A stretch of 64,000 nucleotides of DNA, from NCBI RefSeq assembly GCF_046105845.1, contig NZ_CP151004.1; one strand, written 5' to 3'. The notes under the pieces are model-generated. The model did no database searches, was not told the origin of the DNA, and saw only the letters and a list, made by a program, of their open reading frames with translations. Below are positions 2,165 through 61,977 of this stretch, in pieces; within the stretch, counting starts at the first letter, position 1; the number at the start of each line of letters is the position of its first letter. Origin of the DNA: Escherichia coli. Lineage in GTDB: Bacteria; Pseudomonadota; Gammaproteobacteria; Enterobacterales; Enterobacteriaceae. The translations under genes and the position numbers were made by a program.

Positions 2165-2245
2165 TTATAAAGTAAAACCCCCGAACTGGTGAGGAACGGG
2201 GGTTTTACTTTATTTTGTGCAGCACGCACCCTCAATGAGGATAAT
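2165..2245 (-). ncRNA. ohsC: Candidate antisense sRNA OhsC (type I antitoxin partner of shoB); coordinates approximate
   Basis: Minus-strand unit ending at the bidirectional terminator (2171-2216) with a small 5' stem (cctca/tgagg); location upstream of and divergent from shoB matches what I recall of the K-12 shoB/ohsC arrangement. Boundaries inferred, not measured. Confidence 0.3.
2171..2216. terminator. Intrinsic terminator after acpS, bidirectional in shape
   Basis: Inverted repeat agtaaaacccccg ... cgggggttttact followed by ttattttgtg on the plus strand and preceded by an A-rich run, so it could also terminate a minus-strand RNA. Confidence 0.6.
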
Positions 2246-2558
2246 TATGGATCAGTGTGGTTATCTTTTACAAGCAACTTGCAATCTTTAGTATAAAAAC
2301 TCGAGCCTTGACGAAGAAATCGATATTGATGGCAAGATTAACGTGACCGCCAATTCATAAGTACATTAAAATTGGCTTCGTTATTGGAGATTTTGCTGTG
2401 CTTTACACCATGCCACTGAATTCCCCCATTGAAACGAGTGGTGTCGTCAAAGCTCTGGTGTGGAGTGCAGCATGTACCCTCAATAACTCGCACGTTCAGT
2501 TTTGGGGAGATGTAAGGGCTAATCTGAACGGCTGCATTCCTTGTTTAAGGAAAAACGA

Positions 2559-2639
2559 ATGACTGATTGCCGATACCTGATTAAACGGGTCATCAAAATC
2601 ATCATTGCTGTTTTACAGCTGATCCTTCTGTTCTTATAA
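2559..2639 (+). CDS. shoB: Small toxic membrane peptide ShoB (26 aa), type I toxin
   Basis: ATG at 2559 encodes MTDCRYLIKRVIKIIIAVLQLILLFL then TAA; hydrophobic single-helix peptide; too short for the ORF track; lies between acpS and yfhL. Confidence 0.85.
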   Translation: MTDCRYLIKRVIKIIIAVLQLILLFL

Positions 2640-2656
2640 CATAAGGAAACGTACTT

Positions 2657-2696
2657 AAGGCGCGTCAGGTTAACCAGCCAGGCGCGCCTTTAATAA
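2657..2696. terminator. Stem-loop terminator downstream of shoB
   Basis: aaggcgcg...cgcgcctt inverted repeat (8-bp GC-rich stem) followed by ttaataattat. Confidence 0.5.
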
Positions 2697-11414: not shown

Positions 11415-11598
11415 AGTGGCTCATTCACCGACTTATGTCAGCCCCTTCGGGACGTGCTACATAAAATTCGAATGACGCACAACAAGGTGCCTGCCGTCCA
11501 ACTTCTGATATCAGCGTAGCTATATCAATCATCGGGCGAAACGTCGAGTTAGGCACCGCCTTATTCCATAACAAAGCCGGGTAATTCCCGGCTTTGTT
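11415..11598 (+). ncRNA. glmY: Small RNA GlmY (activator of the GlmZ/glmS pathway)
   Basis: Sequence beginning agtggctcattcaccgacttatgtcagccccttcggg matches my recollection of GlmY; about 184 nt; ends in hairpin aaagccgggtaattcccggcttt plus a U-rich tail; lies upstream of glrK with a sigma54 promoter and GlrR-type sites. Confidence 0.8.
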
Positions 11599-40793: not shown

Positions 40794-41033
40794 TTTAACC
40801 GTCCTGTTTCGTGTTGCATCTGCGTTGACTGCACATACTCACTCTGGTCACTTACTTATGTAAGCTCCCGGAGATTCGTAAGTTTGTCAACTTGCTGAAA
40901 CCCGAAACAGTTAGGTTAAAGATAACAAGATATTAGAATCAGGCCGGGGCGTATCGCGCTCCGTAAACACGGTCGTACATCCAGCCGGTAGCCTGGTTCC
41001 TTGCATTGAGTGATGTACGGAGTTTATAGAGCA

Positions 41034-46029: not shown

Positions 46030-46245
46030 TTTCCGCGTCATGCTTCACGCCGCAGATGCGTTGGCTGCGCTCGTTCACCCCAGTCACATAGTTATCTATG
46101 CTCCTGGGGCTTCACTCACTTGCCGCGTGATTCGGCCTTTTGGCCTCACCCCTCCGGGGCCAGCGCAAGCGCTGTTCAAAACGCAATGCGTTTTGTCCTG
46201 CAACGCGAATCATTTAGCGGAAAAATCCTGGGGCTGCCAACTGGC
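46030..46245 (-). repeat. ERIC (IRU) element
   Basis: The reverse complement of 46040-46130 reads GTGAAGCCCCAGGAGCATAGATAACTATGTGACTGGGGTGAACGAGCGCAGCCAACGCATCTGCGGCGTGAAGCAT, a close match to the ERIC consensus (GTGAATCCCCAGGAGCTTACATAAGTAAGTGACTGGGGTGAGCG...) as I recall it; abuts the iscX stop. Confidence 0.65.
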
Positions 46246-60748: not shown

Positions 60749-61867
60749 ATGCATAACCAGGCTCCAATTCAACGTAGAAAATCAACACGTATTTACGTTG
60801 GGAATGTGCCGATTGGCGATGGTGCTCCCATCGCCGTACAGTCCATGACCAATACGCGCACGACAGACGTCGAAGCAACGGTCAATCAAATCAAGGCGTT
60901 GGAACGTGTTGGCGCTGATATCGTCCGTGTCTCCGTACCGACGATGGACGCGGCAGAAGCGTTCAAACTCATCAAACAGCAGGTTAACGTGCCGCTGGTG
61001 GCTGACATCCATTTCGACTATCGCATTGCGCTGAAAGTAGCGGAATACGGCGTCGATTGTCTGCGTATTAACCCTGGCAATATCGGTAATGAAGAGCGTA
61101 TTCGCATGGTGGTTGACTGTGCGCGCGATAAAAACATTCCGATCCGTATTGGCGTTAACGCCGGATCGCTGGAAAAAGATCTGCAAGAAAAGTATGGCGA
61201 ACCGACGCCGCAGGCGTTGCTGGAATCCGCCATGCGTCATGTTGATCATCTCGATCGCCTGAACTTCGATCAGTTCAAAGTCAGCGTGAAAGCGTCAGAC
61301 GTCTTCCTCGCTGTTGAGTCTTATCGTTTGCTGGCAAAACAGATCGATCAGCCGCTGCATCTGGGGATCACCGAAGCGGGTGGTGCGCGCAGCGGGGCGG
61401 TTAAATCCGCCATTGGTTTAGGTCTGCTGCTGTCTGAAGGCATCGGCGACACGCTGCGCGTATCGCTGGCGGCCGATCCGGTCGAAGAGATCAAAGTCGG
61501 TTTCGATATTTTGAAATCGCTGCGTATCCGTTCGCGAGGGATCAACTTCATCGCCTGCCCGACCTGTTCGCGTCAGGAATTTGATGTTATCGGTACGGTT
61601 AACGCGCTGGAGCAACGCCTGGAAGATATCATCACTCCAATGGACGTTTCGATTATCGGCTGCGTGGTGAATGGCCCAGGTGAGGCGCTGGTTTCTACAC
61701 TCGGCGTCACCGGCGGCAACAAGAAAAGCGGCCTCTATGAAGATGGCGTGCGCAAAGACCGTCTGGACAACAACGATATGATCGACCAGCTGGAAGCACG
61801 CATTCGTGCGAAAGCCAGTCAGCTGGACGAAGCGCGTCGAATTGACGTTCAGCAGGTTGAAAAATAA
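60749..61867 (+). CDS. ispG: 4-hydroxy-3-methylbut-2-en-1-yl diphosphate synthase
   Basis: 372 aa [36 protein letters not shown]... with cluster cysteines (FIACPTCSR ... GCVVNGPGE). Confidence 0.96.
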
Positions 61868-61977
61868 TAACGTGATGGGAAGCGCCTCGCTTCCCGTGTA
61901 TGATTGAACCCGCATGGCTCCCGAAACATTGAGGGAAGCGTTGAGGGTTCATTTTTATATTCAGAAAGAGAATAAAC

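Follow-up and report, generated by a model that had tools for sequence, protein, structure and literature searches.

ShoB/OhsC between acpS and yfhL: a rare allele of a known Escherichia coli type I toxin–antitoxin locus and the co-varying pairing of its antitoxin RNA with the toxin leader

The gap between acpS and yfhL in the 64-kb stretch of Escherichia coli DNA analyzed here (“the window”) raises two questions: do its 26-codon open reading frame and the small RNA unit proposed on the opposite strand form the chromosomal ShoB/OhsC type I toxin–antitoxin system, and, if so, how would the RNA keep the toxin from being made? A bare ORF of this size is uninformative, because the first 5 kb of the window contain 77 ORFs of 20 aa or more. 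We are nonetheless highly confident that the locus is the chromosomal ShoB/OhsC pair of E. coli, in which pairing of the OhsC seed with the shoB leader prevents ShoB synthesis. The original prediction, which had named this pair, is borne out by an identical ShoB peptide, an Rfam match above the gathering score, synteny, divergent non-overlapping transcription units, and 20 nt of complementarity between the antitoxin RNA and the toxin leader. Identity, boundaries (by homology), complementarity, and covariation are established here; for the toxicity of ShoB, its repression by OhsC, cleavage by RNase III, and the finding that full-length mRNA is inactive, we draw on the K-12 literature.

The ShoB/OhsC locus and its transcription units

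The shoB ORF occupies positions 2559–2639 of the plus strand, and its 26 codons plus stop encode the peptide that had been predicted, MTDCRYLIKRVIKIIIAVLQLILLFL. Its DNA does not differ from that of K-12 shoB (b4687), and the peptide is identical to K-12 YP_002791251.1 and to RefSeq WP_000128776.1, under which RefSeq names this ORF “type I toxin-antitoxin system toxin ShoB”. The N-terminal half of the 26 residues is polar and basic, and the C-terminal half is hydrophobic. A scan of the peptide found no ShoB model among the Pfam and NCBIfam HMMs, and the identity therefore rests on direct sequence comparison. Among 100,044 species genomes, a back-translated, degenerate ShoB pattern matched E. 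coli and Escherichia sp. MOD1-EC7003 alone, a range too narrow to follow covariation deeper in phylogeny. In K-12, overproduced ShoB depolarizes the inner membrane (PMC8309996), and OhsC represses ShoB synthesis (PMC5397157).

The setting is that of K-12. The ORF map and alignment to the K-12 record (b4608, b4687) place the pair in the same slot between acpS and yfhL, and the order recO-pdxJ-acpS-ohsC-shoB-yfhL-yfhH is the same in the window and in annotated records (K-12, GF4-3). The two genes are divergent and non-overlapping, with starts approximately 143 nt apart, and, as judged from the ORF map, annotations, and alignment, ohsC and acpS end at one common terminator in a K-12-like position. 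All five published hexamers (shoB GTGACC/TAAAAT, ohsC TTGTAA/CATAAT, and the ribosome-binding site AAGGAA; PMC11264685, Table 2) are found at the expected spacing. Peptide, ORF DNA, gene slot, promoter hexamers, ribosome-binding site, divergent layout, and the position of the leader pairing are thus those of K-12 ShoB/OhsC, and the shoB leader is 97–99% identical. RefSeq (PGAP) records annotate shoB and leave ohsC without annotation. Of 5,426 complete E. coli genomes, 5,425 have a match to the locus. The K-12 pair, formerly RyfB/RyfC, goes back to Kawano 2005 and Fozo 2008, as cited in PMC3919570 and PMC5066626.

The antitoxin gene ohsC lies on the minus strand at 2236–2167. Rfam RF02495 (ohsC_RNA) matches 2233–2169 of that strand with 70.5 bits (gathering score 50, E = 1.4e-10), spanning the full model (1–77), interrupted by deletions of 3 and of 9 positions. 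The 5′ end, A2236, was set by homology to the K-12 +1 after alignment of the K-12 ncRNA (b4608, 2700520–2700598) to the window, and the RNA ends in the U-rich terminator tail. A minus-strand sRNA ending at the terminator is what had been predicted; its length, however, comes to about 70 nt rather than about 80. The 79-nt RNA of K-12 is longer because 9 nt of its linker (TTAACTTTA on the plus strand) are missing from the window gene, and with them the outer stem of the Rfam 5′ hairpin. The RNA begins with A where K-12 has G, and a further difference lies between the ohsC −10 box and +1. The RNA still folds into a small 5′ hairpin and the terminator (−29.4 kcal/mol, z = −5.0). OhsC with this 9-nt linker deletion is found in only 14 of the 5,425 complete genomes. 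Its promoter, located by scanning and with hexamers as published (PMC11264685, Table 2), has a −35 box TTGTAA at 2273–2268, an 18-nt spacer, and a −10 box CATAAT at 2249–2244 of the minus strand.

The terminator shared by acpS (plus strand) and ohsC (minus strand) extends over 2167–2213, beginning 19 nt past the acpS stop codon (2148). It consists of a perfect, GC-cored 17-bp stem with arms at 2167–2183 and 2197–2213 around a 13-nt loop, and we read this inverted repeat as a bidirectional intrinsic terminator because T-rich tails follow it on both strands. Its proposed existence is confirmed, and its limits are moved from the predicted 2171–2216. A terminator scan of the minus strand matched the core of the same stem. 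A weak plus-strand Rfam ohsC match at 2165–2211 is the palindrome of this terminator, and the other Rfam matches over it (Thr_leader at 35.7 bits against 55, His_leader, STnc370, OrzO-P, and several miRNA families) were rejected as far below gathering and driven by the hairpin.

For shoB, the promoter scan places a σ70-like promoter on the plus strand, with −35 GTGACC at 2343–2348, an 18-nt spacer, and −10 TAAAAT at 2367–2372; these boxes are the published ones, 99.9% and 99.6% conserved, respectively (PMC11264685). With a start at about 2379, inferred as 7 nt past the −10 box, and an end placed beyond the 3′ hairpin, the primary transcript (formerly RyfB) would cover 2379–2697, approximately 319 nt, as promoter geometry and the published lengths indicate. 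With a promoter of its own, shoB has a leader of about 180 nt (≈2379–2558), not the more than 300 nt counted from the acpS terminator in the original prediction. Two shoB RNAs of about 320 and 280 nt have been reported, the shorter with a 5′ end 41 nt downstream, approximately 2420 here, and lacZ activity was obtained only from the processed, shorter mRNA (PMC5397157, PMC5066626). The whole transcript folds with −108.2 kcal/mol (z = −4.9). Its 3′ hairpin, a terminator at 2657–2690 of the plus strand (AAGGCGCG...CGCGCCUU, followed by a U/A-rich tail), was found by folding and as an inverted repeat; the simple terminator scan missed it, its T-run being weak. The stem is another allele than that of K-12, with changes that are compensatory or wobble-preserving (GGCGCG/CGCGCC in the window, GGTGCG/CGCACC in K-12). 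Scanning for CpxR boxes (GTAAA-N5-GTAAA) with at most two mismatches returned 2392–2406 (minus strand, one mismatch) and 2204–2218 (minus strand, two mismatches), from 63 matches in the whole window, modestly more than in shuffled sequence (46 ± 7); we assign neither to the published CB1 or CB2.

Two readings would deny the locus this organization. According to one, shoB lacks a promoter of its own and is expressed by read-through from acpS, with a leader that exceeds 300 nt and is fully antisense to OhsC. The shoB ORF does begin 411 nt downstream of the acpS stop codon on the same strand, and any such RNA would be perfectly complementary to OhsC (self-antisense match −43.7 kcal/mol), but it would have to pass the 17-bp terminator behind acpS, the conserved promoter at 2343–2372 speaks against it, and the published transcripts of about 320 and 280 nt are not of the >500 nt that it entails; we hold it to be scarcely credible. 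The other takes ORF and hairpin for unexpressed relics, a chance resemblance or a decayed pseudo toxin–antitoxin pair. Loss does occur, as in strain EC96, where IS1 stands in place of shoB, and in GCA_041897015.1, where a 198-nt deletion has taken the shoB promoter and leader, and the window OhsC itself carries the 9-nt deletion and two wobble pairs. In the window, however, the promoter hexamers, ribosome-binding site, and ORF are all intact, as are the seed/target pairing and both terminators; the duplex loses only about 2.7 kcal/mol relative to that of K-12, and the haplotype persists in 14 complete genomes, so that decay seems to us just as hard to believe.

Pairing of OhsC with the shoB leader

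Nucleotides 1–20 of OhsC, the seed AUUGAGGGUGCGUGCUGCAC (2217–2236, minus strand), are complementary to GUGCAGCAUGUACCCUCAAU in the shoB 5′ UTR (2465–2484, plus strand), 75–94 nt upstream of the AUG. The boundaries of ohsC and the pairing region, which had been considered impossible to fix from sequence alone, are thus given by sequence together with comparison. The duplex has 18 Watson–Crick and two G·U pairs (U2473 and U2475 opposite G12 and G10 of OhsC), whereas in K-12 the pairing is 19 contiguous Watson–Crick pairs. For K-12, complementarity of the OhsC 5′ end to the shoB leader over 19 nt has been described (PMC3919570). On the DNA, a repeat search recovers the two sites as 20-nt direct copies that are 90% identical. 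The predicted duplex energy of −38.7 kcal/mol (about −37 to −39) lies approximately 9 standard deviations below that of shuffled seeds (−17.3 ± 2.4), 0 of 1000 shuffles reach it, and 2465–2484 is the best non-self site for the OhsC seed across the 64-kb window. A second contact, of the OhsC terminator G-run with CCCCC at about 2424–2428, appeared in the duplex prediction for full-length OhsC against the mRNA and was discounted, as that calculation ignores the stable intramolecular terminator.

The complementarity that the original prediction had asked to see between OhsC and the shoB leader is therefore present, and it also co-varies. Among 20 Escherichia loci there are seven distinct seed/target pairs, which fall into two co-varying allele classes: class A, K-12-like and including the window, and class B, found in O157:H7, B2/UPEC, and ST131 and making up about 31% of complete E. 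coli genomes. Class B shares with the window its architecture, its ORF, and its leader outside the target site, but differs at 7 of the 20 seed positions and at the matching target positions (seed GUUGGAAUCGUGUGCUGCAC, target GUGCAGCACUCGAUUCCAAU), with one internal U·U mismatch in the middle of the duplex. Cognate duplexes in the 20 loci are predicted at −31 to −39 kcal/mol, against −16 to −20 kcal/mol for duplexes across classes, including those of class B with the class A partner of the window. Five pairs are changed on both sides and are compensatory, while five are changed on one side in a wobble-compatible manner; all of the compensatory changes belong to the one A/B split, which may be a single event, and gene conversion between the direct repeats, instead of stepwise selection, could have produced them. 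In the true register 98.1% of the cells are paired, compared with 24–52% in slid registers. The target site forms an island of 35–40% divergence between the classes in a leader that is otherwise at most 5% diverged. In vivo, an RNase III cleavage site lies within the putative shoB/OhsC duplex (PMC6212723).

Leader structure and the proposed control of translation

Two elements in the leader could keep the primary transcript silent. At its 5′ end, an inhibitory segment (2382–2410, plus strand) is predicted to bury the OhsC target: in the minimum free energy fold 2394–2410 pairs with 2456–2472 (17 bp) and 2382–2387 with 2480–2485, with a model probability of 0.99 in the window, K-12, O157, and Escherichia sp. 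MOD1 alleles alike. Where 2406 is naturally changed from C to T, this helix retains a G·U pair, and the reported processing at +41 takes the segment away. Close to the ORF, folding gives a hairpin at 2537–2552 in which UUCCUU (2537–2542) pairs across a GUUU loop with the Shine-Dalgarno sequence AAGGAA (2547–2552), 6 nt ahead of the AUG. An obvious adjacent Shine-Dalgarno sequence, which had been found wanting in the original prediction, is thus there, and it is 100% conserved in E. coli (PMC11264685). The hairpin has 6 A/U-rich pairs and is predicted in every form of the mRNA with a probability of 0.53–0.87.

A 10-bp alternative helix, 2462–2471 with 2531–2540, connects the target region to the anti-Shine-Dalgarno side, and when it is forced in folding the Shine-Dalgarno sequence is left more than 0.92 unpaired. 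It would cost about 9–11 kcal/mol in the full-length RNA and 0.6–3.7 kcal/mol in the +41 form, and it is impossible with the OhsC site occupied. We therefore picture three states, all of them modeled. The ≈319-nt mRNA transcribed from the shoB promoter, with its structured ≈180-nt leader and its 26-residue hydrophobic peptide, would be inert at first, its own 5′ end (2382–2410) hiding the target and the Shine-Dalgarno sequence held in the UUCCUU/AAGGAA hairpin. Removal of about 41 nt from the 5′ end would free 2462–2471 to pair with 2531–2540, including the anti-Shine-Dalgarno sequence, and so open the Shine-Dalgarno sequence. Finally, OhsC, transcribed divergently as an sRNA of about 70 nt ending at the terminator common with acpS, would pair through nucleotides 1–20 with 2465–2484, exclude the alternative helix, let the hairpin close again, and so prevent ShoB synthesis; the 20-bp duplex may in addition be a substrate for RNase III.

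The model does not behave uniformly across alleles. The predicted occupancy of the alternative helix ranges from 0.00 to 0.37, and the probability of an unpaired Shine-Dalgarno sequence goes, from full-length to +41 form, from 0.10 to 0.38 in the window, from 0.19 to 0.22 in K-12, and from 0.13 to 0.08 in O157. The full course, from 0.10 to 0.38 on processing and then to 0.08, is seen only in the window and is not cleanly general to K-12 and O157. Because opening of the Shine-Dalgarno sequence by processing depends on the allele in the model, the switch is energetically allowed and not predicted outright. What does rise on processing in every allele tested is the accessibility of the target, from 0.16–0.32 to 0.34–0.45. 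The mode of the translation block, be it a switch that closes the Shine-Dalgarno sequence or a blocked standby site, with or without RNase III cleavage, is thus something that we infer from these models.

A pure standby-site block as in tisB/IstR-1, in which the 30S subunit waits at 2465–2484 and OhsC occupies that site without any refolding, is a real possibility, though we lean against it. This is the mechanism proposed for shoB by Fozo's group (PMC5397157; PMC4147584), and it fits the position of the target, 75–94 nt upstream of the AUG, much as the standby site of tisB lies about 100 nt upstream (PMC7708055). It also fits the general gain in target accessibility just described and a ribosome-binding site that stays mostly shut even after processing. 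A hairpin of six A/U-rich pairs is, however, a weak barrier, and the 10-bp helix between the target region and the anti-Shine-Dalgarno sequence, which a pure standby mechanism does not need, is invariant or wobble-preserving in the 20 loci. Much further from our expectation, and very improbable, is a coupling as in hok/mok, by which a translated 54-codon upstream ORF (2398–2562) would feed ribosomes to shoB and OhsC would block them. This ORF, with an ATG at 2410, spans the OhsC site, overlaps the shoB ATG with its TGA (ATGA), and is open in both allele classes, and a review (PMC4147584) leaves room for “another translational element, like Sok”. Unlike mok, it fails as a translated leader ORF: GTG2398 and ATG2410 have no preceding Shine-Dalgarno sequence, are both buried in the helix of P = 0.99, and are absent from the +41 form, the only translationally active one. 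The change from Cys-Thr-Leu to Leu-Asp-Ser between classes A and B is radical, which suggests that the peptide is not under selection, and its Pfam matches are all below threshold (Phage_spike_2, 18.8 bits against 25) and were rejected as noise.

ShoB/OhsC among related systems and the two allele classes

In several features shoB/ohsC resembles tisB/istR-1, zorO/orzO, and dinQ/agrB: the sRNA gene is divergent and does not overlap the toxin gene, the 5′ end of the sRNA is complementary over 18–21 nt to a site in a long 5′ UTR well away from the ribosome-binding site, and the duplex is cut by RNase III. Activation of an inactive primary mRNA by 5′ processing is likewise common, at +42 in tisB, +44 in dinQ, and +41 in shoB. 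The standby or switch mechanism has been demonstrated for tisB, zorO, and dinQ, whereas for shoB it is hypothesized. The toxins and sRNAs of these pairs have no sequence similarity to ShoB/OhsC (23.8 bits for Rfam OrzO-P, whose gathering score is 60), and shoB has no known LexA control, CpxR having been proposed instead. With hok/sok it has in common that the membrane toxin is small, that the primary mRNA is structured and inert, and that an upstream ORF overlaps the region of the toxin start; Sok, however, acts in cis on a target that it overlaps, blocking the translation of mok, whereas OhsC is non-overlapping.

The pair in the window is an already described system, known since 2005–2008 and carried by about 99% of E. 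coli genomes. Nothing about it is new as a locus, and the window carries it in a rare allele that has a shorter antitoxin RNA and is otherwise ordinary. The pairing region is highly variable, and the pairing potential across shoB-ohsC variants was listed as still to be validated in a 2024 survey (PMC11264685), and the present comparison, with pairing kept in 20 of 20 loci and in two co-varying classes, directly supports the predicted OhsC-shoB duplex. The three-state picture, in which the 5′ end masks the target, processing at +41 allows a helix that opens the Shine-Dalgarno sequence, and OhsC forbids that helix, could decide between standby and switch. More tentatively, and on balance unlikely in our view, classes A and B may represent two orthogonal specificities, each of which gene conversion between the two 20-bp direct DNA repeats could keep matched, with the rare window haplotype (an OhsC shorter by 9 nt and two G·U pairs) being either a retuned, weaker antitoxin or an intermediate toward a further specificity. 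If that were true, a class A antitoxin would not silence a class B toxin, nor a class B antitoxin a class A toxin.

The shoB/ohsC locus and its rare allele

Over the first 5000 nt of the window the plus strand carries era', recO, pdxJ and acpS, followed on the minus strand by yfhL (ferredoxin) and yfhH/murR, and the 684-nt gap between the acpS stop (2148) and the yfhL stop (2833) is the shoB/ohsC interval. The 26-codon ORF of the original prediction is present there at 2559–2639 (+), in both the ORF map and the sequence, and its proposed identity as ShoB is borne out: its DNA aligns to K-12 shoB with no difference, the leader is 97–99% identical, and the order acpS–ohsC–shoB–yfhL is that of K-12, where the MG1655 RefSeq record lists acpS, the ncRNA ohsC (b4608, 2700520–2700598), the CDS shoB (b4687, “toxic peptide ShoB”) and yfhL. 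The RefSeq product name of the 26-codon ORF is “type I toxin-antitoxin system toxin ShoB”; neither Pfam nor NCBIfam holds a ShoB model, so membership rests on direct identity.

Starting 19 nt past the acpS stop, a perfect 17-nt inverted repeat (arms 2167–2183 and 2197–2213, 13-nt loop) found by repeat search is a bidirectional terminator, because T-runs flank it on both strands. The ohsC_RNA model (RF02495) matches 2233–2169 (−) at 70.5 bits (gathering score 50, E = 1.4e-10) and is also recovered when the entire 64-kb window is scanned with Rfam at gathering thresholds, while the ends of K-12 ohsC align to 2236 (5′) and 2167 (3′). The proposed minus-strand sRNA at the terminator is thus found, though not at its proposed length of about 80 nt: OhsC is about 70 nt here rather than 77–79 nt, and nine linker nucleotides of K-12 (TTAACTTTA on the plus strand) are missing.

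The two genes are divergent and non-overlapping, with starts about 143 nt apart. Promoter scans give an intact ohsC promoter on the minus strand (−35 TTGTAA at 2273–2268, −10 CATAAT at 2249–2244), which would put the ohsC +1 near 2236, and a shoB promoter on the plus strand (−35 GTGACC at 2343–2348, 18-nt spacer, −10 TAAAAT at 2367–2372) with the published boxes, 99.9% and 99.6% conserved (PMC11264685). From the latter the primary shoB transcript should start near 2379, giving a leader of about 180 nt instead of the more than 300 nt first supposed, and running through the 3′ hairpin (2657–2690, +) it would measure about 319 nt, in agreement with the published species of about 320 nt (PMC5397157, PMC5066626). 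Nor does shoB lack an obvious Shine-Dalgarno (SD) sequence, as had been thought: AAGGAA, the 100% conserved shoB ribosome-binding site (PMC11264685), lies at 2547–2552, 6 nt 5′ of the AUG.

A 661-nt locus query matched 5,425 of 5,426 complete E. coli genomes, in every case on the chromosome. The ohsC region (2165–2300, 136 nt) reaches at least 99% identity in 14 of these 5,425, one being strain GF4-3 (guinea fowl, Gambia), and at most 90% in all others; the entire window resembles E. coli, its first 20 kb sharing 98.7% identity with the closest complete genome and 95–99% with all 5,425. The rare haplotype combines the 9-nt linker deletion with an A at +1, an altered −10-to-+1 sequence and an extra U2475 in the OhsC target. 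Judged by sequence, then, the locus is the known ShoB/OhsC pair in a rare allele, every defining feature open to such a test having been found; expression, toxicity and repression are known only from K-12 work. Among 100,044 species representatives, a degenerate ShoB pattern matched in E. coli and one cryptic-clade Escherichia only, a narrow distribution in agreement with PMC2887945.

OhsC pairing and the folding of the shoB mRNA

Each gene carries one copy of a 20-nt direct DNA repeat, at 2217–2236 (GTGCAGCACGCACCCTCAAT) and 2465–2484 (GTGCAGCATGTACCCTCAAT), and because ohsC lies on the opposite strand, OhsC nucleotides 1–20 (the seed) are complementary to the shoB leader, as the original prediction required, at a target 75–94 nt upstream of the AUG. 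Both DNA differences yield G·U pairs (OhsC G10 with U2475, G12 with U2473), so the duplex comprises 18 Watson–Crick and two G·U pairs. RNAduplex gave −38.7 kcal/mol for the 22-nt OhsC 5′ end against shoB mRNA, compared with −17.3 ± 2.4 kcal/mol for shuffled seeds (n = 1000, none as low), and of all OhsC sites in the 64-kb window, leaving aside the trivial self-antisense one, the shoB leader ranks first, the runner-up reaching −29.9 kcal/mol. By prediction the duplex falls short of the K-12 one by only about 2.7 kcal/mol, and it agrees with the 19 nt of complementarity described there between the OhsC 5′ end and the shoB 5′ UTR (PMC3919570); in vivo mapping has placed a cleavage site of RNase III inside the putative duplex (PMC6212723). 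OhsC itself is predicted to fold into a small 5′ hairpin and the terminator (−29.4 kcal/mol, z = −5.0), leaving nucleotides 1–7 unpaired as a toehold.

The shoB mRNA folds at −108.2 kcal/mol (z = −4.9 against shuffles). For the full-length mRNA, folding predicts a 17-bp helix of 2394–2410 with 2456–2472 (P = 0.99 for the alleles of the window, of K-12, of O157 and of Escherichia sp. MOD1-EC7003) and a short one of 2382–2387 with 2480–2485; by these two helices the mRNA's own 5′ end would cover the OhsC target, and the SD is predicted to lie within a hairpin, UUCCUU-GUUU-AAGGAA (2537–2552). K-12 full-length shoB mRNA gave no reporter activity, and the form with its 5′ end 41 nt downstream was active (PMC5397157, PMC5066626); in the window this +41 form would start near 2420, without the masking segment. 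An alternative helix of 10 bp, 2462–2471 with 2531–2540, removes the anti-SD from the SD, which is more than 0.92 unpaired if the helix is forced. Its predicted cost is about 9–11 kcal/mol in full-length RNA and 0.6–3.7 kcal/mol in the +41 form, and it is impossible with OhsC bound at 2465–2484.

Removal of the 41 nt might thus act as a switch: the full-length mRNA would keep the target masked and the SD in its hairpin, processing would remove the masking segment, make the alternative helix affordable and free the SD, and bound OhsC would exclude that helix. The alternative helix corresponds to the proposal by Kristiansen et al. (PMC5066626) of a dinQ-like four-element switch in shoB. In the +41 form the helix has a predicted occupancy of 0.37 in the window and 0.08–0.09 in K-12 and MOD1, against 0.00 in O157; since occupancy differs by allele, the switch is allowed by the modelling but not proven. 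A serious alternative is that OhsC blocks a standby site, as in tisB (PMC4147584, PMC5397157); we would put the switch, whether or not RNase III cleavage is part of it, slightly above a pure standby mechanism. By mechanism ShoB/OhsC falls among the divergent type I pairs (tisB/istR-1, zorO/orzO, dinQ/agrB), to which it is unrelated in sequence.

Translation of a 54-codon upstream ORF at 2398–2562 (+; GTG at 2398, ATG at 2410), which spans the OhsC target, could instead feed shoB in the manner of hok/mok, and its TGA stop does overlap the shoB ATG (ATGA). This is unlikely, however: the ORF is without an SD, its start codons sit inside the P = 0.99 helix and are missing from the active +41 form, and its codon changes between the K-12-like and O157-like classes of the locus (A and B) are radical. 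It is probably untranslated, like tisA.

Natural variants and other elements of the window

In one comparison locus (L027; GCA_041897015.1, ABUPAC010000110.1) a 198-nt deletion, equivalent to about 2327–2524, takes away the shoB promoter, nearly all of the leader and the OhsC target and keeps ohsC, the SD and the shoB ORF, that is, a toxin gene without promoter beside an intact antitoxin. In E. coli EC96 (L020; NZ_CP060748.1, 1580–2480) IS1B stands in place of the shoB promoter, leader and ORF, and ohsC is retained, the “antitoxin-only” type of strain mentioned in PMC11264685. PGAP annotates the shoB CDS in every RefSeq record behind comparison loci L002 and L005–L019, and the ohsC ncRNA in none; ohsC is annotated in the curated MG1655 record only, though the Rfam model detects it easily.

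Elsewhere, a strong Rfam match to ryfA (RF00126, 48451–48755 (−), 308 bits) adjoins one to IS128 (RF00125, 48887–49065 (−), 167 bits); Salmonella ryfA codes for TimP, a small toxic protein under repression by TimR (PMC7667032), and a second toxin/sRNA locus of a type I-like kind may lie here. At gathering thresholds Rfam also placed GlmY (11415–11562 (+), 147 bits), the iscRS stability element (40923–41032 (+), 118 bits), sroE (61867–61958 (+), 117 bits) and, marginally, AaHKsRNA22 (46131–46203 (−), 45.3 bits against a gathering score of 39.8), and an ARAGORN search of the 64 kb gave no tRNA gene. A candidate CpxR box at 2392–2406 (−), GTAAAGCACAGCAAA, has one mismatch to GTAAA-N5-GTAAA and lies just within the shoB transcribed region; matches of this kind occur often across the window. 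Regulation by CpxR has been reported for both shoB and ohsC (PMC9600279).

Pairing across two allele classes

We compared 20 loci: K-12, the GTDB E. coli representative, MOD1-EC7003 and 17 further E. coli picked to span the identity range. Seven different seed/target combinations occur in them and fall into two classes, class A (K-12, the window) with the seed (A/G)UUGAGGGUGC(A/G)UGCUGCAC and class B (O157:H7, UPEC/B2, ST131) with GUUGGAAUCGUGUGCUGCAC and a target altered to match. Duplex energies are −31 to −39 kcal/mol for cognate and −16 to −20 kcal/mol for cross-class combinations. Sorted into identity bands, the complete genomes divide into about 69% class A-like and about 31% class B-like, a division that fits the published proportions of the ohsC −35 box (TTGTAA 66.8%, TTGTAC 33.1%; PMC11264685). 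Between K-12 and O157, target and seed each diverge by 35%, the leader flanking the target by 1–5% and the ORF by 0%. The intergenic promoter block (2237–2378; equivalents in L005–L007, L011–L012 and L016–L019), which includes a proposed CpxR site overlapping the ohsC −35 box, is about 18–20% diverged between A and B, and the adjoining shoB leader and ORF 0–5%; the block is an old polymorphism with sharp borders.

On a chimeric seed-linker-target alignment, standard pairs occupy 98.1% of cells, against 24–52% in slid registers. Five pairs have changed on both sides, five others on one side only and there always wobble-compatibly, and one pair of the class B duplex is U·U. Because all five compensatory pairs fall on the single A/B split they may be one event, and because seed and target are direct DNA repeats, gene conversion could copy changes between them. 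However the changes arose, pairing is preserved in all 20 loci examined; in a 2024 survey (PMC11264685), preserved pairing across variants was not yet established for shoB-ohsC.
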